Assembly (NCBI GenBank): GCA_963766305.1
Contig: CAVYAE010000078.1
Coordinates: 6,811 to 70,810 of the forward strand
Direction of reading: 5' to 3'
Length of the DNA stretch: 64,000 nt
Origin: an uncultured Bacteroidota bacterium
GTDB taxonomy: Bacteria; Bacteroidota; Bacteroidia; Bacteroidales; JAAUTT01
Positions within the stretch are counted from its first letter, which is position 1; every line of letters begins with the position of its first letter. Shown one piece after another: positions 25,576 through 61,360 of this stretch. The notes beneath the pieces were generated by a model that was not told where the DNA came from, did no database searches, and saw only the letters and a program-made list of their open reading frames with translations. The position numbers and the translations under genes were made by a program.

Positions 25576-25609
25576 AAAGCTGGGATAAATTAGTATTCGT
25601 CCCAGCTTT
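25576..25609. terminator. Bidirectional rho-independent terminator shared by pfp and carB
   Basis: AAAGCTGGGA-(14 nt)-TCCCAGCTTT is a 10-bp stem flanked by T-rich (plus strand) and A-rich sequence. Its 3' half lies in the last codons of carB. Confidence 0.65.
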
Positions 25610-40074: not shown

Positions 40075-40097
40075 TATTTAGGATTGAAATACAAAAT

Positions 40098-41474: not shown

Positions 41475-41527
41475 CAGCGATACTCTGCCATATTTTTTAC
41501 GAATATCTTTATCCCCGAATAATGTCT

Positions 41528-42154: not shown

Positions 42155-42237
42155 TTAGTTTGATATTACTAAATCTTTATTCTTTAAATTAAAATATCTT
42201 TAATTAAATCTTCATTACGTCATTTGTCATCAGTCTT

Positions 42238-42265
42238 CAGTCAACATCCATCAGTCAACATCCAT
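42238..42265. repeat. 14-bp tandem duplication CAGTCAACATCCAT x2 in the cysI-hemC spacer
   Basis: Perfect copies at 42238 and 42252, flanked by related CATC/AGTC words. Confidence 0.9.
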
Positions 42266-42281
42266 CATCTGCCAACAACTG

Positions 42282-43979: not shown

Positions 43980-44009
43980 ATTATTATTTTCGTAAGTTAT
44001 AATCAGGGA

Positions 44010-44228
44010 TTTGACCTGTCATTATTAATTTATTTGGTCAGGTCGAATTCGCATTTATAGTTTATAGTATTGGTGATGCTCATTTGACCTGTTATTATCT
44101 ATTTTAATGGTCAGGTCGAATTCGCGTTTATGTCATATCTTATTTGTGACGCTCATTTGACCTGTAATTATTTATTTATTTGGTCAGGTCGAATTCGCGT
44201 TTATAGTTTATTGCATTGGTGACGCTCA
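44010..44228. repeat. 73-bp tandem repeat x3 filling the cysJ-cysI intercistronic spacer
   Basis: Units start at 44010, 44083 and 44156 (each TTTGACCTG...). Conserved blocks are TTTGACCTGT, GGTCAGGTCGAATTCGC and GTGA(C/T)GCTCA. Each unit contains a TTTGACCTG/CAGGTCGAA 9-bp inverted repeat and a CGAATTCG palindrome. Confidence 0.95.
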
Positions 44229-44251
44229 TTTGCAAATATTCCTCATCCACT

Positions 44252-46111: not shown

Positions 46112-46251
46112 TTTTTATTGAATTTGCAACATCCTTTTTAAGAGATTTTGCATTAATCTACATTTTATACCAGTATGGTTTTTTGATATATAAGCTTAAG
46201 ATTAGAATATAATTTGTCAATCTCAAAACTACTATTGCATTAACTGCATTG

Positions 46252-46294
46252 AAATACCATGTTCTTGGTATTTTATATACCTAAAAGTAGGGAT
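46252..46294. promoter_or_regulatory. Paired palindromic operator candidates in the divergent cysJ / ABC-module promoter region
   Basis: AAATACCA-tgttct-TGGTATTT (core ATACC 46254-58, GGTAT 46267-71). A second site, ATACC-N8-GGGAT at 46277-46294, lies 23 bp away centre to centre. Confidence 0.6.
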
Positions 46295-46438
46295 AATTTT
46301 ATTTACATCAGGTTTTGATAAGTCATTTATAAATACACATTTATAAATTGCACTAAGTAGTTATGCACCATAAATTATAAGTATAAAATCCGATATAAAT
46401 TACGTTTTAATACTCTTTAAATCAGGGTTAATAAGTAA

Positions 46439-46446
46439 TATGTTTG
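46439..46446 (+). promoter_or_regulatory. Candidate -7 promoter box (TAnnTTTG) for the ABC/GTPase/NifS/Fe-S/LarE-like module
   Basis: 'TATGTTTG' lies 49 nt upstream of the ATG at 46495. Confidence 0.3.
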
Positions 46447-46494
46447 TATTAATATTTACTACAAAGGTAATCTAAATGTTTTAATACTAAATCC

Positions 46495-47280
46495 ATGGAA
46501 ATTAAGAAAATAACTATTCTTGGAGGAAATGGTAAGGATAGCTGTGAAGAAATGGTAAAAAAAGTTGATTTAACAATGGGTAATATAATTAGTATAGTAG
46601 GTCCAACCGGATGCGGGAAAACTACACTGATTAATGACATTGAGCTGTTCGCAAATCATAACACTCCTTCAAACCGTCAGGTGCTGATTAATGATGAACC
46701 CATACCAGATGACTTTACTTTCGATCCGTCAAAGCATCCTATAGCAATGATTTCACAGCATACTAATTTTTTAAGCGACCTTCCTGTTGGGGAATTCCTG
46801 ACAATACATGCCACAGTTCGCGGAGCTGCGGATATAGACAAGGTTGTGGAAGAAACTGTTCAGTTTGCCAACCAACTCACAGGTGAAGCAATTAACAAAG
46901 AAACTGCCATGACAGAACTCTCAGGGGGGCAAACCCGTTCATTACTGATAGCTGATGCCGTTATTATTGGTAATTCTCCTATTATACTTCTTGACGAAAT
47001 TGAAAATGCAGGTATTAATAAAACAAAAGCTCTGGAATTATTGAAGTACTATGAAAAGATCTTCGTTTTCGTTACTCATGACCCTACTATAGCATTGCTT
47101 TCAGACATGCGTATAATAATGAAAAACGGAGCTATGCAAAAACTGGTCACCTCCAACCCTGAAGAAAAAAATGTTGCCGGAGAGTTAATGAAAATTGATA
47201 ATATAATACTTCATTTTCGCGGTTTGATACGAACAGGTGAGGATATTACCCGTGAGCAGCTTTTACAGATTTCTGAATGA
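46495..47280 (+). CDS. Orphan ABC-type ATPase (no permease partner in the window)
   Basis: Walker A 'GPTGCGKTTL', signature 'LSGGQTR', Walker B 'ILLDEIE', H-loop 'VTHD'. Confidence 0.75.
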   Translation: MEIKKITILGGNGKDSCEEMVKKVDLTMGNIISIVGPTGCGKTTLINDIELFANHNTPSNRQVLINDEPIPDDFTFDPSKHPIAMISQHTNFLSDLPVGEFLTIHATVRGAADIDKVVEETVQFANQLTGEAINKETAMTELSGGQTRSLLIADAVIIGNSPIILLDEIENAGINKTKALELLKYYEKIFVFVTHDPTIALLSDMRIIMKNGAMQKLVTSNPEEKNVAGELMKIDNIILHFRGLIRTGEDITREQLLQISE

Positions 47281-47331
47281 CAATTTAAAATATTGGTAAT
47301 AATATATACAAAATTAATCAATTATAAACAG

Positions 47332-48033
47332 ATGAAATTAGTAATTTTTGCCGGCCCGCCAACTTGTGGAAAAACAACTGTTATCCGTCAGGTAATAAAA
47401 AGAATAATTGCTAAAAACCTTAAACCGGCTTACATTAAAATAGATGTATTGTATGCTGATGAGGACCATACTTTGAAAAAGGAATTTGGTATCCCCACAA
47501 GAAAAATTTATTCGGGGGAGCTGTGTCCCGATCACTGCAATGTGGTTGTATTGGATGAAGCTGTCGAATGGGCTGAAAAAACAGGTTCTGATTATTTATT
47601 TGTCGAAACTGCGGGATTGTGTTTACGTTGTTCGCCTTATGTTGAGAACTCTCTGGGAATAGTAGTACTTGAAGCCACCAGCGGCATGAATCTGCCCCGC
47701 AAGATAGGGCCTATGCTAACCCTGGCTGATATTTCCGTAATTACTAAAATTGACCTCATCTCACAGGCTGAGCGCGAAGTGTTCCGTTACCGGGTTCTGG
47801 AATCGGCTAAAAACATTACTGTTGTGGAAAGCAATGCATTATATGGAATAGGTATTGACCCTATAGTAAAACACATACTAAAAACAGAAGATGTTGTTTT
47901 TCCTATGTACCTGCGTGGAAATCCTCCAGTGGGGACATGCACAATTTGTGTCGGGAAAAAGGAAATAGGAGCAAAAAACCATTTTGGTGTATTGAGGACC
48001 ATGGATCAGGAACTTTATTATGTTGGTGAATAA
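47332..48033 (+). CDS. P-loop GTPase of the G3E (HypB/UreG/CobW-like) type with C-terminal Cys motif
   Basis: 'FAGPPTCGKTT' P-loop, 'VETAGLCLRCSPY' (compare HypB 'ENVGNLVCP'), 'ITKIDL' (NKxD-like), C-terminal 'GTCTICVGKKE'. ATG at 47332 is preferred over TTG at 47293. Confidence 0.55.
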   Translation: MKLVIFAGPPTCGKTTVIRQVIKRIIAKNLKPAYIKIDVLYADEDHTLKKEFGIPTRKIYSGELCPDHCNVVVLDEAVEWAEKTGSDYLFVETAGLCLRCSPYVENSLGIVVLEATSGMNLPRKIGPMLTLADISVITKIDLISQAEREVFRYRVLESAKNITVVESNALYGIGIDPIVKHILKTEDVVFPMYLRGNPPVGTCTICVGKKEIGAKNHFGVLRTMDQELYYVGE

Positions 48034-48041
48034 CATTGAGC

Positions 48042-49202
48042 ATGGGAAAAACTGTATATTTTGATTACGCGGCAACTACCTGTGTTGATACGAGAGTATT
48101 GGAAACCATGCTACCCTGGTTTTCAACTTATTTTGGAAATGCGTCAAGTCTCCACCGGTCAGGTACTGAAGCAAGGGAAATACTGAACCATTCCAGGGCC
48201 CGGATTGCAAATTGCATAGGAGCCCAACCTGATGAAATTATATTTACATCCGGAGGAACAGAAGCTAATAACTTCGCATTAAAAGGTATTGCTTTCGCCA
48301 ATAAGACGAAAGGTAACCATATAATTGTTTCTTCCATTGAGCATGATTGCGTGCTTAACTCGTGTAAATGGCTTGAAGAACAGGGATTCTATGTTTCCTA
48401 CCTACCGGTTGACAGCGCCGGATTGATTGATATCGAATATTTAAAAAGAATAATAAACAACAAAACCATTCTGGTTTCAATTATGTTCGCTAACAATGAA
48501 ATAGGTACCATAGAACCGATAGAAGACATAGGTAAAATATGCCGGCAAAATGAGGTTTATTTTCATTCTGATGCCTGCCAGAGCTTTGGCAAGATTCCAA
48601 TAGATGTTAATAAAATGAATATTGATTTGCTTACTATAAATTCTCATAAAATTTATGGACCAAAAGGTGTTGGTGCGCTATACATCCGTAAGGGTACCAA
48701 TATCACACCTCTTTTACACGGAGGAGGGCAGGAAGGAGGCCAACGTTCCTCAACAGAAAATATTCCCGGTGTAGTGGGGTTTGCCAAGGCTGCTGAACTA
48801 TGTTTGTCTGAAATGAATGATGAATATGAAAGGCTTACTCACCTAAGACAAAAACTAACATACTTCCTGCTAAATACTTATGAAGGTGTTTACATAAACG
48901 GGCATACAGAGAAACGTTTACCTGGTCATCTTAGTTTTAGTTTGCATGGTATGGAAGGCGAAACTATCCGGTTGTTACTATTGCTTGATGAGATGGGTAT
49001 TGCCGTTTCTGCAGGTTCGGCGTGTTCCTCAAATCATGGTAACAGCGCTTCTCATGTTTTACAGGCAATAGGCTTAAACCCTTTTGAAGCCAGAGGAGCC
49101 ATCAGGGTAAGTTTTGGCAGGTATACCACAGAAAAAGACATAGATCTGTTAACCAATGCTCTTAGTACTACTATTATGCAATTAAATTCAATATTTTCTT
49201 AA
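48042..49202 (+). CDS. Cysteine desulfurase, NifS/IscS (class I) family
   Basis: 'YFDYAATT', 'FTSGGTEANN', 'TINSHKIYGPKG' (PLP Lys), 'SAGSACSS' (active-site Cys loop). Confidence 0.9.
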   Translation: MGKTVYFDYAATTCVDTRVLETMLPWFSTYFGNASSLHRSGTEAREILNHSRARIANCIGAQPDEIIFTSGGTEANNFALKGIAFANKTKGNHIIVSSIEHDCVLNSCKWLEEQGFYVSYLPVDSAGLIDIEYLKRIINNKTILVSIMFANNEIGTIEPIEDIGKICRQNEVYFHSDACQSFGKIPIDVNKMNIDLLTINSHKIYGPKGVGALYIRKGTNITPLLHGGGQEGGQRSSTENIPGVVGFAKAAELCLSEMNDEYERLTHLRQKLTYFLLNTYEGVYINGHTEKRLPGHLSFSLHGMEGETIRLLLLLDEMGIAVSAGSACSSNHGNSASHVLQAIGLNPFEARGAIRVSFGRYTTEKDIDLLTNALSTTIMQLNSIFS

Positions 49203-49214
49203 AAAATTTAATAA

Positions 49215-49907
49215 ATGGAAACTTTAACATCGCCTAAAACCCCAACAAATGAATTGCTGCCAGGTCTTAATTGCGGAGCTTGTGGCTACAAAACCTGCAA
49301 TGAATTTGCAATTGCTGTTGATAACGCTGAAACTGAACTGAAAAAATGTATTCATGCCAAACAATTAGTAAAAGAGCCGGTTAAAATTAACAAATGCCGG
49401 ACATGCCTTGAGAGTGAAAACCTGGGAGATAAGCTAGGCTGGGTCGACAGCCTTAGCCGTGAGTTTGATTTTATCCTGGATGTCTTTGAAGGTGAACCGG
49501 GACCCAAAGAAACGATATTGCCGTATAACCCGTCTTTAGTTAGTGAATTAGGGGTGAAAAAAGGAGATGTCATGATTGGCCGTCCTATGGGTATGTCATG
49601 CGGATGCCCCGTCACCCATTGCGGAGTAGTGTCTGAGGTGGATGCACGTAACGGCGTTATTCACTGGAACGTAACCGGACCATTACGTCCCCGTATGGAA
49701 GGGTTTATAGATATAGGCTATTATGTTTCCCAGGCATATGAAGGAGTTATAAAAGAATCGAAAGAAGAAATAAAATTAGGCAGGCGTTACTGGTTTTTGC
49801 CCCGCAGGTGTATGTTACAGTGGAGGCACAGCGGATTGGTTAATGCAGTTACAAAAATGAAAGACAGCAGTTATAAAGTCCGCATAGAAGGGTTATTTAT
49901 AGGTTGA
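49215..49907 (+). CDS. Fe-S-binding protein (RnfB-type N-terminal 4Fe-4S domain + uncharacterised Cys-containing C-terminal domain)
   Basis: 'LPGLNCGACGYKTCNEFA...KKC' matches the CxxCx4C...C motif of the RnfB N-terminal Fe-S domain. A second cluster 'MSCGCPVTHCG' follows. The rest is unrecognised. Confidence 0.55.
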   Translation: METLTSPKTPTNELLPGLNCGACGYKTCNEFAIAVDNAETELKKCIHAKQLVKEPVKINKCRTCLESENLGDKLGWVDSLSREFDFILDVFEGEPGPKETILPYNPSLVSELGVKKGDVMIGRPMGMSCGCPVTHCGVVSEVDARNGVIHWNVTGPLRPRMEGFIDIGYYVSQAYEGVIKESKEEIKLGRRYWFLPRRCMLQWRHSGLVNAVTKMKDSSYKVRIEGLFIG

Positions 49908-49990
49908 ATTTCACTACATCCGGAAATTTATTATTTTAATATTAATTTAATCGTTAAATTAGCCAGAAAGATAATTTATACCGGACTTTA

Positions 49991-50806
49991 ATGAACATTG
50001 ACGATAAATATATATCCCTGATCAAATATATAAAATCAACACAAAGCCTGACAGTAGCTTTTTCAGGAGGAATTGACAGCGCTTTTCTTTTGTTTGCTGC
50101 CAGGGAGGCATTAGGCAAGAAGAATGTTTTAGCTGTTACGATAAAAACGCTTTATTTTCCTGAGAGGGATTTAAAGGACGCACTTGAATTCAGTAAAAAA
50201 CTTTCTGTAAAGCATCAGGTTATTGATCATATAGTACCCGATAATTTAAGGCCAAACCCTGTTGACAGATGTTACTACTGTAAAAAGTTTGAATTTTCTG
50301 TTATTATAAACAAGTCCAGAGAGTACAATATAAGCAATGTAGCTGCAGGATTAAATGCAGATGACCCCTCTGACTACAGACCAGGAATATCTGCCATGAA
50401 TGAACTTAACGTACTTTTCCCTTTACAGGAGGTTAACCTGAGTAAAAAAGAAATAAGGGAACTGGCAAGGAAATTTAACCTGAAACTATGGAATAAGCCC
50501 GCCAATGCTTGTATCCTTTCCCGTATCCCATATGGTGATTTTATTACCGATGAAACGATTAAACGTATACAGGAGGCAGAGATTATTCTGCAAAAAGAAG
50601 GATTTGTAAACCCACGTGTACGTACCTACGGTACTACTGCAAGTATCGAAGTTGAACAAAATGAAATAACCAGGTTTTCGGATGATGAGCTCACTTCCAG
50701 AGTTTATTCAGCTATAAAATTACTTGGATATGAAGCTATTACTATAGACAAAAAAGGTTATAGGACAGGAAGCCTTAATGAAGGGGTTGTAACGCCGGTA
50801 AAATAA
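49991..50806 (+). CDS. LarE-like PP-loop ATP pyrophosphatase / sulfur transferase (TIGR00268-like), three-Cys ([4Fe-4S]-type) variant
   Basis: PP-loop 'AFSGGIDSAF', 'DRCYYCKKFEF' (CxxC) and 'ANACILSRIPYG' (third Cys, at the position of the sacrificial Cys in L. plantarum LarE). Confidence 0.75.
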   Translation: MNIDDKYISLIKYIKSTQSLTVAFSGGIDSAFLLFAAREALGKKNVLAVTIKTLYFPERDLKDALEFSKKLSVKHQVIDHIVPDNLRPNPVDRCYYCKKFEFSVIINKSREYNISNVAAGLNADDPSDYRPGISAMNELNVLFPLQEVNLSKKEIRELARKFNLKLWNKPANACILSRIPYGDFITDETIKRIQEAEIILQKEGFVNPRVRTYGTTASIEVEQNEITRFSDDELTSRVYSAIKLLGYEAITIDKKGYRTGSLNEGVVTPVK

Positions 50807-50848
50807 ATACAGTTATATAGCTATTAAAATATACCATAAACAAGGTAT
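50807..50848. promoter_or_regulatory. Paired palindromic operator candidates upstream of the LuxR-type regulator
   Basis: Perfect ATACC-ataaacaa-GGTAT at 50831-50848. A degenerate ATACA-N8-GCTAT at 50807-50824 lies 24 bp away centre to centre. Confidence 0.5.
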
Positions 50849-51085
50849 TTTATTTTAATAACATAATTATCATTTTTGTATACCATATATAATATCCAAA
50901 GGATTGATTCAAATACTCCAAAATATTAACTTTTTGAGAATAAACAGATATTCCTGTTGTTGTAGTTGGTGAAATCAACTTTAACATAAGTAAAACATTC
51001 TGTTTCTTATTATACTTCCTGTTGATTTCACCCAAGCTCATCCCTTTATTTTTAGTTTTTACAAATAAAATTAATTCCAGGTAAA

Positions 51086-51748
51086 ATGGAAAATATTAAT
51101 ATTTTATTGGCAGATAATCAACCGTTCACACGAATTGGCATAACCTCCGTACTATCAGGTTATTTTAACAAGCAAATTATTGTAGATCATGCGACTAACA
51201 GAGAAGAGCTTCATGAAAAATTACATCTTAATAATTCGCATGTATTAATAATTGATTATGAATTATTCGACTTTAACAATATAAATGAATTATCAGAAAT
51301 AAGGACCATTTCCCCCGGAATTGGCATACTGGTTATAACAGATAACCGTAATCCTGACAATGTTATTAAAGTCCTTAATTCCGGAATAACGAATTACATT
51401 CTAAAGTCAGCCAATGAGCAGGAACTTATAGATGCCTTCAATGCTACGGTAAATAACAGGAAATATTTTAGCAGTGAAATACTGGATGTACTGCTTGAGA
51501 AAAAAAATAATTCCCGGAATGGACATGCCTCACGCGGACAGATTACCCCTTCTGAAATAGATATTGTCAAATTAATTACACAGGGTTTAACAACAAAAGA
51601 AATAGCATCTCAGAAAAAACTCAGTTACCATACAATAATTACACACCGGAAGAATATTTTCCGAAAAGTTGGAATAAACAATACCTCAGAACTTATAATG
51701 TATGCAATGCGAACCGGAATAGTTGATTCTACAGAATATTTTATTTAA
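51086..51748 (+). CDS. NarL/FixJ (LuxR-HTH) family response regulator
   Basis: Receiver domain ('ILLADNQP', 'VLIIDYEL', 'ILVITDN', 'NYILKS') plus C-terminal 'ITPSEIDIVKLITQGLTTKEIASQKKLSYHTIITHRKNIFRKVG' LuxR-type HTH. Confidence 0.85.
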   Translation: MENINILLADNQPFTRIGITSVLSGYFNKQIIVDHATNREELHEKLHLNNSHVLIIDYELFDFNNINELSEIRTISPGIGILVITDNRNPDNVIKVLNSGITNYILKSANEQELIDAFNATVNNRKYFSSEILDVLLEKKNNSRNGHASRGQITPSEIDIVKLITQGLTTKEIASQKKLSYHTIITHRKNIFRKVGINNTSELIMYAMRTGIVDSTEYFI

Positions 51749-51806
51749 AAAATAAATTATCTTGCACTATAGAAATACTTCTGCATTATAAATAAATAAT
51801 TAAATA

Positions 51807-52984
51807 ATGAATAAAAGTTTTGGATCGCAACTGATTCACTTGGGAGAAACGAACCCGGAATCGATATCAAAGCCAAAATCCTTACCTATTTCGTTGACTT
51901 CAGTTTATGTTTTTGATGATATGGAATCCCTGGATGAGATATATTCAGGAGAGTCTAAAGGTTTTATATACACCAGGAACGGGAACCCGGTTCATGATGC
52001 GTTGAAGGAAATTATGGTAAACATAGAAGAAGGTGAAGATGCTCAGGTATTTTCATCCGGAATGGCTGCTATTGTCCTGAGTATAATTTCTCAGGTAAAG
52101 GCAGGTGATCATATAATTGCTGCAAATGTGCTTTACGGGATCAGTTATTTGTTTCTAAAATCGGAACTTTCAAGATTTAATGTTGACGTCACTTTTGCTG
52201 ACGTTATAAATGAAGATATTACGCCTTATTTTAAACCCAATACAAAGCTGGTTTATGTTGAAACCATTTCAAACCCCCTAATGGAGGTTATTGATATAGC
52301 AACAATCGCCAAGGCAGCTCATGCCAATAATGCAAAACTGATAGTTGATAATACCTTTGCCACACCTGTTATTTGTCAGCCATTATTACTCGGAGCTGAT
52401 ATTGTTGTCTACAGTGCAACAAAATACCTAAGCGGTCACAGTGATGTAACAGCAGGAATAGTTGTTTCCAATCTGGAAACCATTAAAGATATTTATACAA
52501 AGGGAATACTTTACGGACCAACCTTGAGCCCTTTTGATTCCTGGCTTATCATCCGAAGTCTGAGAACCCTGGAGTTAAGGATTAAGCAGCATTCGGACAA
52601 TGCTTTAAAATTAGCAACTTACCTTCAAACCAGCCCTAAAATAAAAAAGGTATATTATCCTGGTTTACAATCATCGTCAAGTTACGGATTAGCCGGCAGG
52701 ATTTTCAATAACGGATTATATGGAGGTATGCTGAGTATCGATCTGACAGGGGGGAAAAAAGTGCATATGCATTATTACGGTTGCTGACCACAATTAAGTT
52801 GGTGCCAAGTCTTGCAGGTGTTTCAACTTCGACCTCTTACCCTGCAAAAATATCTCACAGGGCGTTGAATGACCAGGAGCTTGAAAAAGCAAACATCTCC
52901 AAAGGATTAATTCGTGTTTCAGTGGGTCTTGAAAATGCCGATGATATTATTGCTGAATTTGAACAGGCTTTAATTAACCTTTAA
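51807..52984 (+). pseudogene. Trans-sulfuration PLP enzyme (cystathionine gamma-synthase/lyase family), one frameshift at a G6A6 run
   Basis: 'YTRNGNPV', 'FSSGMAAI', 'YSATKYLSGHSDVTAGIVV' (PLP Lys). The C-terminal 'SLAGVSTSTSYPAKISHRAL...LIRVSVGLENADDII' is in another frame. Adding one base in GGGGGGAAAAAA (52749-52760) restores '...DLTGGKKSAYALLRLLTTIKLVPSLAGV...'. Confidence 0.8.
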
Positions 52985-53104
52985 AGGTATTTTTTTTAAA
53001 TAAGCCTTCTTAATATCATATCCCTTATTTTTTCCCATATTGTGTTTCGTTTTCTTCTGCTATTATAGGGCTTTTGTCCGCGAAAAAAAACGCCGTATAA
53101 CCTA

Positions 53105-53145
53105 ATACCTCAAATTAGGTATATAAGATACCAACAATGAGGGAT
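53105..53145. promoter_or_regulatory. Paired palindromic operator candidates upstream of cysK
   Basis: Perfect ATACC-tcaaatta-GGTAT at 53105-53122. ATACC-N8-GGGAT at 53128-53145 lies 23 bp away centre to centre. The pair sits 63-103 nt upstream of the cysK ATG. Confidence 0.6.
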
Positions 53146-53207
53146 TTTATTAATTTAAAATGTTCCTCACCTTTGAAAAATAATGTAATATTCAAATTAT
53201 TAAAATA

Positions 53208-54143
53208 ATGGCTGGTATTGCTAAAACATTGACCGACCTCATTGGGAACACTCCTTTAATGGAACTGGCAAATATTGAGAGAACCTTTAAATTACATGCC
53301 ACAGTTATTGCTAAACTGGAATTATATAATCCCGCAAGAAGTGTTAAGGACAGGATAGGTTTTGCGATGATAAAAGCAGGTGAAAACCAGGGTCTGATAA
53401 ATAAGAATACAACTATAATTGAACCAACAAGCGGTAACACGGGTATTGCTTTAGCTTTTGTTGCAGCAGCCAGAAATTACAAGCTTATACTTATAATGCC
53501 TGAAACCATGAGTATTGAGCGTCGGAACCTTTTGACTGCCCTGGGTGCACAGATAGTTTTAACACCGGGACATGAAGGTATGGGAGGTGCTGTGAGGAAG
53601 GCTGAAGAACTGCATGCCAAAACGCCAAATTCCTTTATCCCCCAGCAATTTAAAAACGCCGCTAATCCTGAAATTCACAGGACTACCACAGCAGAAGAAA
53701 TCTGGAACGATACAGATGGTGATATTGATATTTTTGTTTCAGGCGTTGGCACAGGAGGTACCATTACAGGAGTGGGTGAGGTCCTTAAAAAAAGAAAGCC
53801 CGACATAAAAATTGTGGCGGTGGAACCTTTCGACTCCCCTGTTTTATCGGAAGGCCGACCAGGACCACATAAAATACAGGGTATAGGTGCCGGATTTGTG
53901 CCTGAAGTATTAAACAGGAATGTTATAGATGAAATCATTAAGGTCAAAAATGATGAAGCATTTCAGACAGGAAGGGACCTGGCACGTTTTGAAGGGCTCC
54001 TGGTAGGAATATCTTCCGGAGCTGCCGTTTATGCAGCTGTTCATTTAGCAAAACGTCAGGAGAATAAAGGGAAAAAAATAGTTGTAGTTGTTCCGGATAC
54101 AGGGGAAAGATATATATCTACTTTATTGTATAATAAGGAATAA
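53208..54143 (+). CDS. cysK: Cysteine synthase A (O-acetylserine sulfhydrylase)
   Basis: '[10 protein letters not shown]', '[11 protein letters not shown]' (PLP Lys), '[12 protein letters not shown]', '[10 protein letters not shown]', 'GISSGAA'. Confidence 0.95.
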
Positions 54144-54374
54144 AGGGACTAAATCTCAGGAAGAAATAACTACATAATAGTAATCAACACCTGACATAAA
54201 AATTCAGATAAAAATTAACTCCGTATGCAAAACAGTCAGAAAAATAAATTACACCGTGCTCAAAATATTCAGTATAATGATTAACTCTTGACAAAAAACT
54301 TTCACCATAATAATAAACTTCAGACATCAAATCTTCAGAATAGTAATTAAAACAAAACATAATAAGACAATCAT

Positions 54375-55058
54375 ATGCAAATTAAAGTAAATGGTAAAGA
54401 ACAGAAAATTGAACAGAACCCTTTATTATTGCTCGATCTGATCAAACAAAATAATGTCAGGCAACCTGATATGGTATCCGTTCAGCTTAATGGAAATTTT
54501 GTCCAAAGGGGAGATTTTGACAATACTGCAATAAAAGAAGGGGATGAGGTTGAATTCCTTTACTTTATGGGTGGAGGTCAAGGCGATAGGAAAAAATTGT
54601 CTATTATAAGTTTTAGTGGAGATTTTGATAAACTTGTAGCCGCGTTTACCTTGGCTACCGGCTCAGCTGCAGTCGGATTGGATGTATTTATATTTTTTAC
54701 TTTCTGGGGTTTAAATGTTATTAAAAAGGAACGCGGAAGAAAAGCCTTAGGTAAGGGGTTTCTTGCCAAATTCTTTGTATTTCTGCAGGGAGGAAGGAAT
54801 AATTTACCTTTAAGCAGATTAAATTTTGGCGGCATAAGTCCCAAACTAATGACACATATGATGCGCCAGAGGAATGTTGCTACACTTGATGAACTTATTG
54901 ATGCGGCTATTGCTCTTGATGTTAAACTTTATGCATGCGAAATGTCCGGGGTAATTCTCGGTTTGGACAAGGATACTTATATCCCTGAAGTAAAAGAGGT
55001 AATAGGAGTGGCTAAATTCCTTGAGCTCTCTGAAGGCGGCGACAGGATTTTCATTTAA
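54375..55058 (+). CDS. Fusion protein: ThiS/MoaD-type sulfur carrier (residues 1-68, ending ...FMGGG) + DsrE/DsrF/DrsH-like domain
   Basis: N-terminus 'MQIKVNGKEQKIE...VQLNGNFVQRGDFDNTAIKEGDEVEFLYFMGGG' is a complete ThiS ending in the Gly-Gly(-Gly) terminus. The remainder, 'KLSIISFSGDFDKLVAAFTLATGSAAVGLDVFIFFTFWGLNVI...LYACEMSGVILGL', matches the COG2210/DrsE_2 family, including the conserved Cys. Confidence 0.75.
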   Translation: MQIKVNGKEQKIEQNPLLLLDLIKQNNVRQPDMVSVQLNGNFVQRGDFDNTAIKEGDEVEFLYFMGGGQGDRKKLSIISFSGDFDKLVAAFTLATGSAAVGLDVFIFFTFWGLNVIKKERGRKALGKGFLAKFFVFLQGGRNNLPLSRLNFGGISPKLMTHMMRQRNVATLDELIDAAIALDVKLYACEMSGVILGLDKDTYIPEVKEVIGVAKFLELSEGGDRIFI

Positions 55059-55083
55059 TAGTTTAAATTATATATAAATATTT

Positions 55084-56520
55084 ATGTCTGAAGATTTTAC
55101 AACACGAAGCGTAACTACAGTCATTGCCCGCAACCTGGCGAATACAACCAAGACGGTTCCTCAAATGGGGTCTATAACCCCAAGGTATTTACTTAAACTG
55201 CTGCCATGGGTGCATGTGGCATCCGGTACATACAGGGTCAACAGGACTAAAGTTGAGCTTAAGAAAGCCGACCGTATTGAAATAGATTACAGGGAAGGTT
55301 CAGCTTCATTTCAGTCCGAAGCTTTAAAAAGCATACCACTGTTTTCATCACTCGAAGAGGATATCCTTGAACGAATTGCAACACGCTTTACCACAGAAGA
55401 AGCAGATCTGGGAAGCAACCTTATTCTTGAAGGCGAAGACAGGCATAAGTTTTTTATAATTGCACACGGTCAGGTGGAGGTCTTAAGTAAGGGACTCCAC
55501 GGGGAAGAACTCAGGATTGCACTTTTATCGGAAGGGGAATATTTCGGTGAGGAAGATTTTATCACAGACAGGCCATCAGACGTTACAGTAAGGGCAATAA
55601 CCCATGGGGTATTTCTAACCTTATCTGGAAAGGATCTGGAGGCAATTTTCAGTGAAATCCCAAATTCACGCAAGAAATTTGAAAAAGCCAGGGAAGATTA
55701 TGCTAGATTAAGATCTTCGGTGAACAAACACGGAGAACGACATATAGACCTGGTATCAGGTTTAGAGGAAGACCATGTAATACCTGAAACTTATGTGGAT
55801 TATGCAGTAAAACCCAAGGAATATTCACTAAATGCTATTCAAACCATTGTGAGGGTCCATACCAGAGTATCCGACCTTTACAACGATCCCCACAACCAGC
55901 TGGAACAACAAATGCGGCTGACCATTGAAGGCATGAAAGAAAAGCAGGAATGGGAACTAATTAATAACAAGGAATTTGGATTGTTACATGCTGTAGATCC
56001 CAGCCAGCGAATAAGCACACGTTATGGAGCACCTACCCCTGACGATCTGGATGAGTTACTTGCTCTCGTTTGGAAAAAACCAGCTTTCTTTTTGGCACAT
56101 CCCAAAGCTATAGCTGCTTTTGAACGTGAGTGTACCTGGAGAGGAGTACCGCCGGTTACTATTCAGCTATTTGGAAGTCCTATAGTAACATGGAGGGGTG
56201 TTCCATTAATCCCGAATGACAAGCTTGAAGTAAGGGGACATTTATCCAGCCGTGGTCTTGGTACTACCAATATATTACTTATAAGGGTAGGAGAGGATGA
56301 GCAGGGGGTAGTGGGTCTGCACCAGGCAGGAATTCCGGGGGAAATTTCTCCCAGCCTTTCTGCACGTCTGATGGGATTGGACCGCCTGGGTGTTGCTTCT
56401 TACCTGTTAACCCAGTATTTTTCATTGGCCGTACTTACGGATGATGCATTGGCAGTTCTTGAAAATGTAGAAGTGGGATATTATCACGATTATCAGCACA
56501 GAATTCCAAAAGTAAAATGA
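55084..56520 (+). CDS. Family 2B encapsulin nanocompartment shell protein (HK97 fold with inserted cNMP-binding domain)
   Basis: 'ARNLANTTKTVPQMGSITPRYLLKLLPW', 'IPETYVDYAVKPKEYSLNAIQTIVRVHTRVSDLYN', 'YGAPTPDDLDELLALVWKKPAFFLAHPKAIAAFERECTWRGVPP', 'WRGVPLIP' and 'LAVLTDDALAVLENVEV' match my memory of SrpI-type Family 2 shells. Residues ~85-200 ('IPLFSSL...FGEEDF...RPSDVTVRA') form a CRP-like cNMP-binding domain. Confidence 0.85.
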   Translation: MSEDFTTRSVTTVIARNLANTTKTVPQMGSITPRYLLKLLPWVHVASGTYRVNRTKVELKKADRIEIDYREGSASFQSEALKSIPLFSSLEEDILERIATRFTTEEADLGSNLILEGEDRHKFFIIAHGQVEVLSKGLHGEELRIALLSEGEYFGEEDFITDRPSDVTVRAITHGVFLTLSGKDLEAIFSEIPNSRKKFEKAREDYARLRSSVNKHGERHIDLVSGLEEDHVIPETYVDYAVKPKEYSLNAIQTIVRVHTRVSDLYNDPHNQLEQQMRLTIEGMKEKQEWELINNKEFGLLHAVDPSQRISTRYGAPTPDDLDELLALVWKKPAFFLAHPKAIAAFERECTWRGVPPVTIQLFGSPIVTWRGVPLIPNDKLEVRGHLSSRGLGTTNILLIRVGEDEQGVVGLHQAGIPGEISPSLSARLMGLDRLGVASYLLTQYFSLAVLTDDALAVLENVEVGYYHDYQHRIPKVK

Positions 56521-56553
56521 TTATACAAATACACAAAATATACAAAATAATAT

Positions 56554-58299
56554 ATGTCAGAAAACAATGCAACTTTTGAACCACCTATTGGTGATGAATT
56601 ATTGAATCCTGCAATAATTGCCCAAATAGCAAGCAGAATTTATAATGAAATACCTGGTGTTTCAGGAATACCTGTTAATCTTGCTGAGGCTTCAAAAACA
56701 CCCTCGGAGTACAGTGATCCCGGAGAGTTGTTGAATTATAATACCTCAATTGATGAACCGGCTATTGCTGATTTTAGTTTTTTAAAGAATATATTGGGCC
56801 TGGAATCAGGTGCTGGTTGCATAGCTAAAGTATTAAGAGTAGAAAATACAAAACAAAGTGATTTTTCAGGGAAATTGCTGGGAGGATATATACCTGATTA
56901 TTACTTTCTTAAAAACAGTAATATTCAGGAAGATAAACAATTATTAGAGCATACGGATAACCTGGTAAATCAGCAAACCCTGACGGGAGACACTGCCGGA
57001 GCATCCAGTTTGAAACAATATGTTCAAAAGGTTCGGTCAGTAAATGGTGGCTTCTCAGAGAAAAGCCGGGATAATTCAATTTTTGATGTTAACCGTATCA
57101 GGAAGGATTTTCCCGTTCTTAACCAGTATGTGCACGGGAAGCCTTTAATATGGTTTGATAATGCAGCAACGACACAAAAACCCGGAAGTGTAATAGATTC
57201 CTTGTCCAGGTTTTACAGTCATGATAATTCAAACATACACCGGGGAGCACATTCCCTGGCAGCGAGGGCTACTGATGGCTATGAAGGTACAAGGGAGAAT
57301 GTAAGGCGTTTTCTGGGAGCGGGGTCCGTGTCTGAAATTGTATTTGTAAGGGGAACCACAGAAGCTATTAATCTGGTAGCTCAGACCTGGGGAAGGAAAA
57401 ACATTCTTCCTGGTGATGAGATACTTGTTACTATACTGGAACATCATGCAAATATTGTACCCTGGCAAATGCTGGCAAAGGAAAAAGGGGCAATCCTCCG
57501 TCCCATACCTGTAAATGACAGGGGTGAGATTTTACTTGATGATTACAGCAGGTTGCTTACGCCGCATACAAAATTGGTAGCTCTTACACATGCTTCGAAC
57601 AGCATTGGTACCATTTTGCCTGTTAAGGAAATGATACAGCTCGCCAAACGATATGATACAAAGGTATTGGTAGACGGAGCACAGTCTGTGGCTCACATAC
57701 CTGTCAACGTCCAGGACCTGGATGCTGATTTCTTCGTATTTTCAGGCCATAAAATATTTGCTCCTACCGGTATAGGTATTTTGTTCGGTAAAAAGGAAAT
57801 ATTGGAAAATATGCCTCCATGGCAGGGTGGGGGAAATATGATTAAGGATGTCACCTTCGGAGAAACTATTTTTAATAAAGTACCGGATAAATTTGAAGCA
57901 GGTACACCAAGTATTGGTGACGCAATAGGTTTAGGCGCTGCACTGGATTATGTAAATAAAGTTGGTCTGCATAATATTGCCGCTTACGAGCACAAACTTA
58001 CTGATTATGCAACCGGGCTGTTAAGGCAAATTCCAGGGGTAAGACTTATAGGCTTACCTGGAGAAAAAGTAGGAGTTATATCTTTAGTATTAAACAATAT
58101 TAATAGTGAACAGGCAGGCCGGTACCTCGACCAGGAAGGGATTGCCCTGCGTACGGGACATCATTGTGCTCAGCCAGCCCTGAGAAGGTTTGGAGTAGAA
58201 AGTACCATAAGACCTTCATTTTCATTTTATAATACCTTTGATGAGATTGACTGTTTTGTTGCAGCCATTAAGAAAATTGCCCAGGGGAAATTACTATAA
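56554..58299 (+). CDS. SufS/CsdA-type (class II) cysteine desulfurase with ~175-aa N-terminal extension; predicted encapsulin cargo
   Basis: The core starts at 'IRKDFPVLNQYVHGKPLIWFDNAATTQKP' and includes 'HRGAHSLA', 'FSGHKIFAPTGIG' (PLP Lys) and 'RTGHHCAQP' (active-site Cys). The N-terminal ~175 aa are low-complexity and contain 'LNPAIIAQIASRIYNEIPG', reminiscent of the cargo-loading motif of Family 2 desulfurases. Confidence 0.85.
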   Translation: MSENNATFEPPIGDELLNPAIIAQIASRIYNEIPGVSGIPVNLAEASKTPSEYSDPGELLNYNTSIDEPAIADFSFLKNILGLESGAGCIAKVLRVENTKQSDFSGKLLGGYIPDYYFLKNSNIQEDKQLLEHTDNLVNQQTLTGDTAGASSLKQYVQKVRSVNGGFSEKSRDNSIFDVNRIRKDFPVLNQYVHGKPLIWFDNAATTQKPGSVIDSLSRFYSHDNSNIHRGAHSLAARATDGYEGTRENVRRFLGAGSVSEIVFVRGTTEAINLVAQTWGRKNILPGDEILVTILEHHANIVPWQMLAKEKGAILRPIPVNDRGEILLDDYSRLLTPHTKLVALTHASNSIGTILPVKEMIQLAKRYDTKVLVDGAQSVAHIPVNVQDLDADFFVFSGHKIFAPTGIGILFGKKEILENMPPWQGGGNMIKDVTFGETIFNKVPDKFEAGTPSIGDAIGLGAALDYVNKVGLHNIAAYEHKLTDYATGLLRQIPGVRLIGLPGEKVGVISLVLNNINSEQAGRYLDQEGIALRTGHHCAQPALRRFGVESTIRPSFSFYNTFDEIDCFVAAIKKIAQGKLL

Positions 58300-58336
58300 A
58301 GGAACATGTTACCTAATTAGTTTTTGTTTTGTAAAT

Positions 58337-58364
58337 CCCGGTGTTTGCGAAAATCCCGGGTTTT
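58337..58364. terminator. Possible terminator hairpin between the convergent desulfurase and JAMM genes
   Basis: CCCGG-(14 nt)-CCGGG followed by TTTT. The stem is only 5 bp. Confidence 0.35.
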
Positions 58365-58445
58365 ACATTTTATCCTTTTTTAATCAATATTGCACAGTAT
58401 TTATCATCAATCATTATAAAGATGATGAAATGTGTCTGGTAATAA

Positions 58446-58844
58446 TTAATTTATAATCTTGATCTCTTCATTCAAAGCGATGCCATTGACAATGCGAAAT
58501 GACTTTACCACCGGTTCTTTTTCTGCAAGGGAAATAATTATATAGCTGATATCCGGATCATAGGCAAGACGTATGTCTTCCTGTGAAGGTCGTGAAGGAG
58601 TTGATGGATGGCTGTGGTAATTTGCAATAATATTTAAGCCTTTATTACGGGCTTCTTTTACAGTTTTAAACTGTTCTGACGGATCGAATGAAAAATGTTC
58701 AGGGCTATGGTCAGTATTAGTAAGCTCATAGGCCGTTGTTATAACACCGTCCTCTCCCGCAAGATAACCACATGCTTCATCCGGCAGGTCTTTTTTAGCA
58801 TGTGCTATAATCTGATCTAATATACCACTTGATATTGAAATCAT
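58446..58844 (-). CDS. JAMM/MPN+ metalloprotease (Mec+/HcyD/QbsD-like)
   Basis: 'EACGYL' and 'HSHPSTPSRPSQED' (E...HxH...S..D JAMM motif). The start overlaps the TusA-like stop by 4 nt. Confidence 0.85.
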   Translation of the reverse strand: MISISSGILDQIIAHAKKDLPDEACGYLAGEDGVITTAYELTNTDHSPEHFSFDPSEQFKTVKEARNKGLNIIANYHSHPSTPSRPSQEDIRLAYDPDISYIIISLAEKEPVVKSFRIVNGIALNEEIKIIN

Positions 58845-59065
58845 TTTTCAATAGTTATTTTGTGTACAGAATCTTTCACATGCTGAATATTCAAAACCTT
58901 ATATCCCTGTTCAGTGGCGCTCTTAGGCACATTCTCCAATGGCTCACCTTCTGTAAGTAAAACTTCAAGGATATCTCCATTATTAAGTTTTGACAATTCA
59001 ATTTTAGTTTTTACAAATGTCATCGGACAATGTTCTTTTGTAATATCAAGTTGTTTAGTTGCCAT
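58841..59065 (-). CDS. TusA/SirA-family sulfurtransferase
   Basis: 74 aa. 'LDITKEHCPMTFVKTKIELSKL..GDILEVL' carries the conserved Cys, in CPMT rather than the canonical CPxP. Confidence 0.7.
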   Translation of the reverse strand: MATKQLDITKEHCPMTFVKTKIELSKLNNGDILEVLLTEGEPLENVPKSATEQGYKVLNIQHVKDSVHKITIEK

Positions 59066-59080
59066 AATATTTAAGTTTCA

Positions 59081-59911
59081 TTATTTATGATGTTCATTTT
59101 CTGTAATCGGCGGTGTTTCGCAAACTGGCAGGTCATAGGTTTGTAATTCAGTTATCGTAGGATGTTCACCGCAGATGGGGCATTGTTTGTTTCTGTTAAA
59201 TGTTATATTACGAAATTCCATGGATAATGCATTAAATGTCAGCAAACGGTTTGTCAACAGTTCACCCGTTCCTGTAAAATACTTCAGCACTTCGGTAGCT
59301 TGTATAGTTCCGAGCATCCCTGCAATCGATCCCAATACTCCTGCCTGCGAACATGTAGGCACAGCATCGGGTGGTGGCGGACTGTTGAAGGCACACCTGT
59401 AACAAGCGTTGTCAGGAGTATGGGTAAATGTTTGTCCTTCAAAACGAAGGATACCTCCATGTGAGAATGGTTTACCCGATATTACACAAGCATCATTAAT
59501 CAGGAATTTTGTAGGAAAGTTGTCTGTACCATCAATTACAAAATCGTAGTTTTTTATAATATCAAATATATTATAGGATGACAGTAAATCCTGGTAAGCA
59601 ATTACATATACATCCGGGTTGAGCTTATTTATTTTTTCTTTTGCGGAGTTCACCTTTGGTTTATTGACGTCTTCGGTATAATGTATGACCTGTCTCTGGA
59701 GGTTGGTCAGATCAACTACATCGGCATCTATTATTCCAATTGTCCCCACACCTGCTGCAGCAAGGTAAAGAGCAGCAGGTGAACCAAGTCCGCCTGCCCC
59801 GACTATGAGTACCTTACCTTCCATAATTTTTTGCTGTCCTTCAACACCCACATTCTGAAGGATTATATGCCTGCTGTAACGTTCAATTTGGGAATCTGTA
59901 AATTCTATCAT
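59081..59911 (-). CDS. ThiF/MoeB/HesA-family E1-like adenylyltransferase (HcyF/MoeZ-like, no rhodanese domain)
   Basis: 'RYSRHIIL..VG.EGQQKI....VLIVGAGGLGSPAALYLAAAGVG', 'DLTNLQRQ', and the Zn motifs 'CYRC' and 'CPICG'. Confidence 0.9.
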   Translation of the reverse strand: MIEFTDSQIERYSRHIILQNVGVEGQQKIMEGKVLIVGAGGLGSPAALYLAAAGVGTIGIIDADVVDLTNLQRQVIHYTEDVNKPKVNSAKEKINKLNPDVYVIAYQDLLSSYNIFDIIKNYDFVIDGTDNFPTKFLINDACVISGKPFSHGGILRFEGQTFTHTPDNACYRCAFNSPPPPDAVPTCSQAGVLGSIAGMLGTIQATEVLKYFTGTGELLTNRLLTFNALSMEFRNITFNRNKQCPICGEHPTITELQTYDLPVCETPPITENEHHK

Positions 59912-59984
59912 AAAGATACCTTGTCCTTCTTAATTGTTTTAAATAATCAGCCATAATTAAATGGTAATCCGTGTACGTCATCGT

Positions 59985-60040
59985 TAATCAGTTATCAATC
60001 ATCTGTCGTCCATAATCAGTCGTCAATCATCTGTCCTCAG
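59985..60040. repeat. 28-bp tandem repeat x2 in the metY - E1 spacer
   Basis: TAATCAGTTATCAATCATCTGTCGTCCA / TAATCAGTCGTCAATCATCTGTCCTCAG. The second copy overlaps the metY stop codon (60037-60039). Confidence 0.85.
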
Positions 60041-61269
60041 ACTAAAGCTGATTCAATATCTGTTAATAAATCATTAATATCTTCTATTCCTGCTGATAAT
60101 CTCAATAATGTATCCGGTACTCCTATTTTCTGGCGTGTTTCGAAACCAAAATCACAATATATTGTCGAAGCAGGATGAATAATTACTGATTTGTTATCGT
60201 AAATATTTGTTGCACGCCGGATTAATTTCAGATTATTAATAAAATCAAAACTTTCCTGCTTTGTTTCGAAATTTATTGTAAGCATGGCTCCAGGGTATTT
60301 ACCAAACTGCTTAAGGCCGATATTGTAAAATGGTGAGCCGGGTAAACCCGGATAATTCACATTTTTTATGCCTGGTTTATCCAGAAGATATTCAGCTATG
60401 GACAGACAATTACTTACCGATTTGTCAAAACGAAGTGCAAGGGATTCAAGCCCCACACTCTGAAGGTAAGCATTGAATGGTGACAGGCAGGCACCTAAGT
60501 TTCTTTGTATTTCTCTTCTAAGCTTGACTTTTAGTACCCAGGGTCCGAATTTAGAAGATAAATTGGAAAGCTTTTTGTTGTACGACCAATCATAAGTGCC
60601 ATAGTCTACTATAATCCCTCCGACTGAGGTAGCCCCTCCTGAAATTATTTTAGTACTGGATATTACTTCAATATTTATACCAAAATCTGAAGCCCGGAAT
60701 ATATTAGGCGGAGTAAGGGTGGTATCGGCAATTAATAATAAATGATGCTCTTTGGCAACCCCTGATAAAGGGCTAATATCAGCAATTTCAAGTTGAGGAT
60801 TTGTAATGGTTTCAATATATATTGCCACGGTATCCCCATCTATATTTTGTTGTACTTCTTCAATATTGTTTAAGTCACAAAACCTGACTTCAACACCAAA
60901 AGGTTCCAGAGTAGATGTAAAAAAGGAATAAGTGTTCCCAAACAGGTGCCTCGAGGCAATTATATTGCTGCCAGCCTGGCATATGGCTAAAAATATATTC
61001 GAAATGGCAGCCATGCCTGAGCCTAGTGCAGAAACAGCTATGCCTCCTGTAACCGATAATATCCGTCTTTCGAGGTTTTCTACTGTAGGGTTTGAAATAC
61101 GGGTATAGATATGGTCAGGATGATGCCCAAGAAATGCCTCTTCCATGTATTCAGCAGATTCAAATTCAAAGGCAGCATTGCTGTATATTGGCATTTGAAG
61201 TGCATTGTGAGCATCGTTTCTGGCATAGCCGGTATGAATTATTTTAGTAGAAAACCCTTCCAGTTCCAT
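60037..61269 (-). CDS. metY: O-acetylhomoserine sulfhydrylase-like PLP enzyme (MetY family)
   Basis: 'YTRISNPTV', 'LGSGMAAI', 'SSTKIISGGATSVGGIIVDYGTYDWS' (PLP Lys and the OAHS-type insertion), C-terminal 'LLRLSAGIEDINDLLTDIESAL'. Confidence 0.8.
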   Translation of the reverse strand: MELEGFSTKIIHTGYARNDAHNALQMPIYSNAAFEFESAEYMEEAFLGHHPDHIYTRISNPTVENLERRILSVTGGIAVSALGSGMAAISNIFLAICQAGSNIIASRHLFGNTYSFFTSTLEPFGVEVRFCDLNNIEEVQQNIDGDTVAIYIETITNPQLEIADISPLSGVAKEHHLLLIADTTLTPPNIFRASDFGINIEVISSTKIISGGATSVGGIIVDYGTYDWSYNKKLSNLSSKFGPWVLKVKLRREIQRNLGACLSPFNAYLQSVGLESLALRFDKSVSNCLSIAEYLLDKPGIKNVNYPGLPGSPFYNIGLKQFGKYPGAMLTINFETKQESFDFINNLKLIRRATNIYDNKSVIIHPASTIYCDFGFETRQKIGVPDTLLRLSAGIEDINDLLTDIESALV

Positions 61270-61319
61270 CCTTCCATTTTTGTTAACTGCAAAGATGCAA
61301 CCATATGGTTTTACTTTAA

Positions 61320-61360
61320 ATACCTATGATTTGGTATATTTCGTACCGTTATTTAGGTAT
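61320..61360. promoter_or_regulatory. Paired palindromic operator candidates upstream of metY
   Basis: Perfect ATACC-tatgattt-GGTAT at 61320-61337. GTACC-gttattta-GGTAT at 61343-61360 lies 23 bp away centre to centre. The pair sits 51-91 nt upstream of the metY ATG (61269, minus strand). Confidence 0.6.

Follow-up and report, generated by a model that had tools for sequence, protein, structure and literature searches.

Paired palindromes at a fixed distance from the promoter -7 box: the probable operator of a sulfur-assimilation regulon in Bacteroidota

How bacteria regulate sulfur assimilation is well known for Proteobacteria (CysB), Firmicutes (CymR), and Actinobacteria. We analyzed a 64,000-nucleotide stretch of DNA from an uncultured Bacteroidota bacterium (assembly GCA_963766305.1, contig CAVYAE010000078.1, positions 6,811 to 70,810; hereafter the window), in which copies of the 18-bp palindrome ATACC-N8-GGTAT stand as paired sites in front of sulfur genes. 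These pairs are probably the operator of a sulfur-assimilation regulon widespread in Bacteroidota, at which a NarL/FixJ-type response regulator (RR) encoded in the window (51086..51748, + strand) would bind and activate transcription. Domain searches, an orthologue alignment, and linkage to the pairs identify this RR as the likely binder; if so, it would be a so far undescribed master switch for sulfur uptake, including an encapsulin, in this phylum. Full-text literature searches, whose coverage was incomplete, turned up no report of such a sulfur regulon or regulator from Bacteroidota, and none of desulfurase-encapsulin regulation by a response regulator.

The perfect palindrome occurs four times in the 64 kb, at 46254, 50831, 53105, and 61320, exactly where the original prediction, made from the letters of the window, had placed it. 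Dinucleotide shuffles gave an expectation of 0.08 copies, close to the roughly 0.07 first estimated, and none of 100 shuffles reached four. The weaker companions that had been proposed 23 or 24 bp away were also recovered: 1-mismatch sites at 46277, 53128, and 61343 each lie exactly +23 bp from a perfect copy, and a fourth site with two mismatches, at 50807, lies 24 bp upstream of the perfect copy at 50831. When a pair was defined as two sites 22–24 bp apart with at most four arm mismatches summed, the search of the window returned exactly these four pairs and none besides, compared with 0.07 in Markov shuffles. All four pairs, and with them all four perfect copies, are intergenic as claimed; the 50807 site begins at the base following the stop codon of a LarE-like gene. 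In the window, the motif is thus both over-represented and placed between genes, as would be expected of a regulon operator.

Each pair was oriented toward its neighboring genes, and the sequence beyond the gene-proximal end was compared. All four window pairs showed a TTTG at offset 26 (26–29 nt past the gene-proximal end) on one side only, which indicates the direction that each pair serves: cysJ (-), the RR gene (+), cysK (+), and metY (-). Pair 1 (46254..46294, - strand; ATACCATGTTCTTGGTAT and ATACCTAAAAGTAGGGAT, 23 bp centre to centre) would serve the cysJ promoter, whose predicted -7 box, TAGTTTTG at 46224..46231 (-), is of the TAnnTTTG type and lies 22 nt from the pair. Pair 2 (50807..50848, +), with the weak distal site ATACAGTTATATAGCTAT and the perfect proximal site ATACCATAAACAAGGTAT at 24-bp spacing, would serve the RR promoter; the predicted -7 box of the transcript carrying the RR gene and a pyridoxal phosphate (PLP) enzyme gene is CATTTTTG (50871..50878, +), followed by a leader of about 200 nt. 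Pair 3 (53105..53145, +; ATACCTCAAATTAGGTAT and ATACCAACAATGAGGGAT, 23 bp) is assigned to the cysK promoter with its predicted -7 box CACCTTTG at 53168..53175 (+), and pair 4 (61320..61360, -; ATACCTAAATAACGGTAC and ATACCAAATCATAGGTAT on the - strand, 23 bp) to the metY promoter with the predicted box CATCTTTG at 61290..61297 (-). The -7 consensus of Bacteroidetes sigma-A is TAnnTTTG (PMC7366714), and, judged by sequence, the window 8-mers that end in the phased TTTG match this element. A sigma-70 promoter scan was set aside as irrelevant for Bacteroidota. No further phased site, single or weak, was detected in the window, including upstream of the ThiS-DsrE, ThiF, and JAMM genes and of the ABC module described below.

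The phasing extends beyond the window. When the window pairs were combined with those at loci selected by an RR orthologue, TTTG stood at exactly offset 26 in 14 of 17 distinct pairs, against a background of 0.0082 per position (P ~6e-23), so that the pairs hold a fixed position relative to the core promoter. A logo of 41 unique metagenome promoters among the matches listed reads ATACC-tAAwwTwA-GGTAT-AyAAT-ATACC-N8-GGTAT-TT-N20-(C/T)AnCTTTG-N3-CA, with the CA 35 nt past the pair. The A of the -7 box is present in 40 of these 41 promoters, and its first position is a C, off the TAnnTTTG consensus, in 26.

The genes behind the four pairs were mapped by Pfam and NCBIfam searches. Target operon 1 (39088..46111, -; Pfam) comprises cysJ, cysI, a hemC-like gene, cobA-hemD, and hemB, that is, siroheme/haem-precursor genes beside sulfite reductase; its co-transcription is presumed from the common strand. 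Downstream of the RR gene lies a Cys/Met-metabolism PLP enzyme gene (51807..52985, +), whose frame is broken near 52750-52790. Target operon 3 (53208..58299, +) encodes cysK, a ThiS-DsrE2 fusion, a family 2B encapsulin shell, and a cysteine desulfurase cargo, and the same gene order follows a pair in locus L002. Target operon 4 (58446..61269, -) encodes a metY-like O-acetylhomoserine sulfhydrylase, a ThiF/MoeB-type E1, and a JAMM peptidase, a set that corresponds to a thiocarboxylate route.

The pairs were also found at RR loci of other genomes. A species-representative genome collection contained one RR locus, in a Bacteroidales metagenome-assembled genome with an RR 39% identical to that of the window; its gene order is an ABC/GTPase/NifS/FeS module, the RR gene, a 1-mismatch pair (23 bp), and a metY-like gene. 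The protein database holds a large RR orthologue family, and the DNA around 11 of these orthologues was examined. RR identities at the ten independent RR-selected loci with DNA are 39–72%. At the RR-selected loci the RR gene is always found amid sulfur genes, in differing arrangements: near cysK-ThiS/DsrE-encapsulin in L002; a cysK/metY/homoserine acetyltransferase cluster in L004; metY in L005; a PALP enzyme in L007 and L010; cysJI in L008 and L011; and, in L012, in the order cysH-cysD-cysN, a cystathionine synthase gene, the RR gene, and metY-cysE-cysK. At the P0085 locus, for which the gene arrangement only was considered, a sulfate ABC transporter, cysDN, and cysH lie near the RR gene. Beside the RR gene, pairs 22–24 bp apart precede sulfur genes at nine of the ten independent loci, with one to three pairs at each; at the tenth, L009, one perfect site stands alone between a HAD gene and the RR gene. 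Phased pairs are followed by cysJ in L008, L011, L057, L071, L075, and L124, by metY in L005, L012, and 7 metagenome loci among the matches listed, and by ThiF in L055. The original prediction had named a lack of conservation upstream of orthologous operons as evidence against itself; what we found is that the pairs are kept before orthologous sulfur genes in unrelated arrangements. Phased pairs also stand before Porin_O_P and PBP_like_2 genes and a TonB-dependent receptor/SusD pair (L004 5893-6002, L007 10069-10533), which suggests that sulfur-compound uptake systems belong to the regulon in some genomes.

A metagenome collection was also scanned for the perfect-perfect pair alone, a selection that used no protein and is thus free of bias toward the RR, and at least 120 stretches were obtained, which fell into two populations by GC content (the counts in this paragraph are among the matches listed). 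Group A (GC 0.34–0.47) comprises at least 48 Bacteroidota-like hits, all with the phased TTTG. The first open reading frame (ORF) of at least 90 aa is homologous to a sulfur protein of the window in 35 of the 48, namely cysK (20 loci, the commonest gene after phased pairs), metY (7), cysJ (4), ThiS-DsrE (2), ThiF (1), and a cysI-like gene (1), and one further group A hit has a CysD/PAPS-reductase-like product. Group B (GC 0.55–0.70; L014, L019, L025, L030, L039, and about 55 others) comes from peat and soil and has the layout TTGACA-nn-ATACCAACyrGTnGGTAT-N5-ATACCAACyrGTnGGTAT, followed by a leaderless gene of the TetR family (e.g. L014 5584-6281) whose protein has the Pfam domain TetR_N. Like the Bacteroidota pairs, this arrangement contains ATACC-N8-GGTAT twice, 23 bp apart; in contrast to them, its N8 is conserved (AACyrGTT), it lies between a TTGACA -35 element and the leaderless TetR gene, and it belongs to another phylum. 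On this sequence evidence, group B is the widespread operator of an autoregulated TetR repressor and a separate system. Tandem repeats, too, can contain the bare pattern (L029, L034/L076, L128). The pattern is not diagnostic outside the phylum; within Bacteroidota-like DNA it marks sulfur promoters.

Among low-GC perfect pairs, some have the TTTG shifted to offset 25 (L022, L036, L052, L073, L080, and L099, which are marine, and L035, L116, and L126). Their downstream ORFs are 62–150 aa long and gave no Pfam match in those scanned, and a divergent 323-aa gene lies across the pair in L022, L036, L052, L073, and L080, and is cut at the contig end in L099. These loci may be further regulon members in marine Bacteroidota.

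We then considered which protein binds the pairs. The RR combines a receiver domain (PF00072, 2.1e-13) with a GerE domain (PF00196, 6.6e-13), the NarL/FixJ architecture of REC plus a GerE/LuxR helix-turn-helix (HTH), and its closest sequence matches in the PDB are VraR (best, 1.4e-22), NarL, and RcsB. None of the NCBIfam equivalog cutoffs was reached (MctR, the best, scored 115 bits against a cutoff of 300; NarL, 82 against 250), which by sequence places the RR in a subfamily without a named orthologous group. Across 15 orthologues and NarL, the receiver residues D57 (the phospho-acceptor) and K107 are invariant and T/S85 is conserved, as in a receiver that accepts a phosphoryl group. D10 is also kept. 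Asn occupies position 11 (NarL D14), which by homology to CheY D13 we take to be a Mg2+-binding residue, in 13 of the 15 orthologues, and the remaining two have Cys or Ser there; as the residue is never Asp or Glu, the acidic pair (DD/ED) is absent from the family. A conserved C-terminal tail, GIIDTTEYYI, is present in the RR family and missing from NarL. In neither the window nor the 12 loci with gene tables is the RR gene flanked by a histidine kinase gene of the HisKA_3 type; a kinase may be encoded elsewhere. Together, the Asn at the NarL D14 position and the lack of a linked kinase gene suggest that the input or control of this RR may be atypical.

Linkage and conservation point to the RR as the binder. 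By tblastn, an RR orthologue is encoded in 14–15 of 56 motif-selected low-GC loci (322 kb; among the matches listed), in most of which the RR gene adjoins a pair; in L047, L051, and L060, the RR stop codon lies about 10 nt from the distal site. The recognition helix, HT[IV]ITHRKNIFRKL, is almost invariant in orthologues of 36% to 72% overall identity, with the variant HTVNTHRKN in P0108 and P0119, and this near-invariance in parallel with the invariant motif arms supports binding by the RR. An Rrf2 protein was considered as another candidate. The Rrf2 regulator CymR of Firmicutes is a cysteine/sulfur master regulator, and Rrf2 genes occur near the RR gene in L001, L002, and L010, where they flank the ABC/GTPase/NifS/FeS module or Fe-S genes and not the pairs. 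However, tblastn found no Rrf2 gene in the window or in any of the 56 motif-selected loci among the matches listed, and an Rrf2 (CymR/IscR-like) binder was rejected because it does not co-occur with the motif. Given the linkage to pairs, the lack of Rrf2 genes, the conserved helix, and a site geometry of the NarL type, we consider with good confidence that the local RR is the best candidate binder of the pairs. The core of the original prediction, a paired-palindrome regulon operator with the local LuxR-type regulator as its probable candidate binder, therefore stands: the pairs are conserved, phased, and linked to the RR.

The system is best described as a NarL-family regulon with 7-2-7-type sites, and it fills a gap at the level of the phylum. 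The engineered high-affinity NarL 7-2-7 site is TACCCCTAAAGGGGTA, and NarL acts as an activator at napF and yeaR, where its 7-2-7 sites have their centres near -44 and -42 (PMC4549865). TACC-N8-GGTA likewise resolves into inverted heptamers with an outer TAC and 2 bp between them (7+2+7), so that it resembles TACCCCTAAAGGGGTA in arms and spacing, and the REC plus GerE architecture is shared with NarL/NarP of Escherichia coli. Unlike in the NarL system, the inner heptamer bases are not conserved, two 18-mers stand 23 bp apart and are locked to a Bacteroidota sigma-A -7 box, the genes concern sulfur assimilation and not the respiration of nitrate, a linked gene for a NarX-type kinase is lacking, and the protein has Asn for the second pocket Asp and the GIIDTTEYYI tail.

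Other known regulators resemble the system in part. CysB of Proteobacteria is a LysR-type activator; it acts from immediately before the -35 region, where it covers two adjacent sites as a multimer. As with CysB, one factor would coordinate sulfate reduction, cysK, and related genes; unlike the RR, CysB belongs to an unrelated protein family and responds to N-acetylserine, sulfide, and thiosulfate. No LysR-type gene was found among the window ORFs scanned, which covered 19–64 kb, and on direct reading no symmetric base pair of the motif has the spacing of a T-N11-A box. VraR/LiaR-type regulators bind adjacent primary and secondary sites as dimers and oligomerise on phosphorylation. VraR is also the best PDB match to the RR (see above); in contrast to the RR system, VraR/LiaR proteins control cell-envelope stress, use different half-sites, and have cognate kinases.

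From these comparisons, a mechanism can be proposed. Each 18-mer (A-TACC-N8-GGTA-T) would be a 7-2-7-type site for a dimer of the GerE/LuxR HTH domain of the RR, and two RR dimers would sit 23 bp apart, the proximal one ending 22 nt before the -7 box. A spacing of 23 bp corresponds to 2.2 helical turns, so that both dimers would face almost the same side of the DNA; this would be compatible with the dimer of dimers that the original prediction had also envisaged. If the A of the CA at +35 is the transcription start, the proximal palindrome would span approximately -52 to -35, with site centres at about -43.5 and -66.5, a geometry like that of a class II activator. The RR would then most likely recruit RNA polymerase to -7 boxes that are slightly off consensus (CAnCTTTG vs TAnnTTTG). 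In this way, presumably when reduced sulfur is scarce, it would switch on sulfite reduction with siroheme synthesis, cysteine synthase with the sulfur-storing encapsulin, homocysteine synthesis via the thiocarboxylate route, and its own gene. Binding, activation, and signal are all deduced from sequence and position.

Whether the RR activates or represses was judged from promoter geometry. As a repressor, it would occlude the -33 region when sulfur is plentiful, following a logic of the CymR type. The proximal palindrome at about -52 to -35 lies where sigma region 4 would bind, so that repression, too, could be exerted from a site that ends at about -35, and NarL represses some promoters via 7-2-7 sites (PMC4549865). 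The lack of a recognizable -33 element here is not diagnostic, because some Bacteroidetes, such as Flavobacterium johnsoniae, have none (PMC7366714). However, the spacing between pair and box stays the same at promoters that are not homologous (cysK, metY, cysJ, RR, ThiS-DsrE, and transporter genes), which argues that the bound protein touches RNA polymerase in a stereospecific way and does not simply occlude the promoter. Moreover, 26 of 41 -7 boxes begin with an off-consensus C, a typical trait of promoters that depend on an activator. In Gram-negative bacteria, the sulfur-assimilation regulons that are known are driven by an activator (CysB). With the constant distance, a proximal centre at -43.5, and the off-consensus first base, we favor a class II-type activator and consider repression unlikely.

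Several observations weigh against the RR as activating binder of a single regulon. Some three-quarters (~75%) of the motif-selected loci, which are short, lack an RR gene (41 of 56 among the matches listed), and the RR-selected loci are biased toward RR linkage by their selection. TTTG is not at offset 26 in three pairs, those of L001, of the RR promoter in L002, and of the PALP gene in L007. The base-contacting positions of NarL, which we take to be K188, V189, and K192, correspond to I185, T186, and K189 in the RR, so that of the three only the K192 equivalent is kept, a further difference from NarL. An identical phased pair (L020 5459-5499) stands beside another NarL-type regulator, of 25% identity and with a canonical DD pocket, in front of non-sulfur genes, and a perfect phased pair (L024 1272-1312) stands beside a tetratricopeptide-repeat protein; the arms may thus be common to several LuxR-type regulators of the phylum. 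In both L020 and L024 the spacer is GCCAT, TGACA follows, and the pair lies upstream of small ORFs without a Pfam match; the two loci may represent a second regulon that uses the same arms.

The pairs could also be a genuine sulfur operator bound by another LuxR-type or unlinked factor, with the RR as just one regulon member. In the window, L002, and L007, a pair or a single site stands before the RR gene itself, as it would before any member; a second NarL-type regulator lies beside the same motif in L020; and the 41 loci without an RR gene fit this reading as well. Against this, one RR gene per genome goes with several pairs, and the loci are mostly a few kb long, so that linkage at about a quarter of them (~25%) is approximately what a true regulator would give. 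Moreover, no other regulator family recurs beside pairs (Rrf2, 0 of 56 among the matches listed), the geometry of the motif is specifically that of the NarL family, and conservation of the recognition helix runs parallel to that of the motif. Another binder thus appears quite unlikely, and we retain the RR. The idea that the pattern is chance or a repeat element without regulatory meaning draws on its occurrence in tandem repeats and in the unrelated TetR system; it is effectively refuted by four sites against 0.08 expected, all intergenic and phased with a promoter box, and by conservation before orthologous genes in dozens of unrelated contigs.

Two wider proposals follow from the RR as activator. 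Tentatively, and with less than even expectation, the RR could be an orphan, atypical, kinase-independent regulator that senses sulfur status directly, through a metabolite or partner protein, and acts throughout Bacteroidota as the master activator for sulfur assimilation; among its targets would then be a sulfur-storing family 2 encapsulin, and no other transcriptional control of such an encapsulin is known. In addition, tandem TACC-N8-GGTA dimers locked to a -7 box may be a general architecture of LuxR-type activators at Bacteroidota sigma-A promoters. Many environmental Bacteroidota share what the analysis describes: a concrete regulon with its candidate regulator, a consensus for the operator, and a predicted layout of the promoter. 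Together these give a rule for spotting sulfur-regulated promoters in metagenomes. It ties expression of the cysteine-desulfurase encapsulin, a sulfur-storage compartment, to the cys/met regulon and offers a clear, predicted example of activator placement at a non-canonical Bacteroidota promoter.

In one respect the scope of the regulon had to be narrowed. Adjacent to cysJ lies a five-gene module (46495..50806, +) encoding an ABC-type ATPase, a CobW/HypB-like GTPase, NifS, an FeS-domain protein, and LarE, which had been counted among the controlled operons. The 46254 site does lie between cysJ and this module, as described, but its promoter box points to cysJ (-); toward the module, the TTTG is at offset 19, out of phase. 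The module has its own box, TATGTTTG at 46439-46446 (+), a perfect TAnnTTTG 49 nt before the ATG. No pair was found upstream of the module in L001 or L010, and a module gene was never the first gene after a pair in the metagenome set, among the matches listed. Because pair 1 is phased toward cysJ, the module has its own box, and pairs are lacking before the module in L001 and L010 and before module genes in the metagenome set, the sequence evidence indicates that the module is probably a neighbor and not a target of the operator. For the sulfite reductase, cysK-encapsulin, and metY/ThiF/JAMM thiocarboxylate genes, membership in the regulon is supported.

The module adjoins the RR gene in three distant genomes (the window, L001 6489-9920, and L010 6391-9791), with LarE in the window only. 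Its ATPase has no permease alongside, and its FeS protein has an FeS domain of the RnfB type. In L001 and L010, an Rrf2 gene with a Cys-rich motif lies close to the module. The module may serve maturation by inserting sulfur or a metal, under an IscR-like control of its own.

Control by a riboswitch or leader RNA was rejected. At gathering scores no Rfam family matched the window, and none matched 46100-53300 at E values up to 1, hence no S-adenosylmethionine riboswitch; in 12 related loci, none was found except an unrelated DUF805 RNA in L020. The RR leader of about 200 nt contains, at 50968-51032, a 12-bp stem (GGTGAAATCAAC … GTTGATTTCACC) followed by a T-rich tract. This hairpin was rejected as a regulatory element: its fold has a z of -2 against shuffles, and it is not conserved in L002, L007, or L009.

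Some features of the window genes were recorded in addition. At 54375-58299, the ThiS domain is fused to a DsrE2-like sulfur-carrier domain directly before the family 2B (cNMP-binding) encapsulin with its cysteine-desulfurase cargo, and the ThiS-DsrE gene has its own phased pair in several metagenome loci. Type IX secretion system genes lie upstream in the window and, like the type of promoter, point to Bacteroidota as the source. In the PLP enzyme gene, the conserved C-terminus (…SLAGVSTSTSYPAKISH…VSVGLEN…) runs on in another frame to 52985, and the broken frame (52700-52988) reflects a pseudogene or else an indel from sequencing. The large subunit of carbamoyl-phosphate synthase is also interrupted and falls into three consecutive ORFs on the - strand (25590-27122, 27154-27915, and 27923-28810), which suggests assembly indel errors or gene decay.

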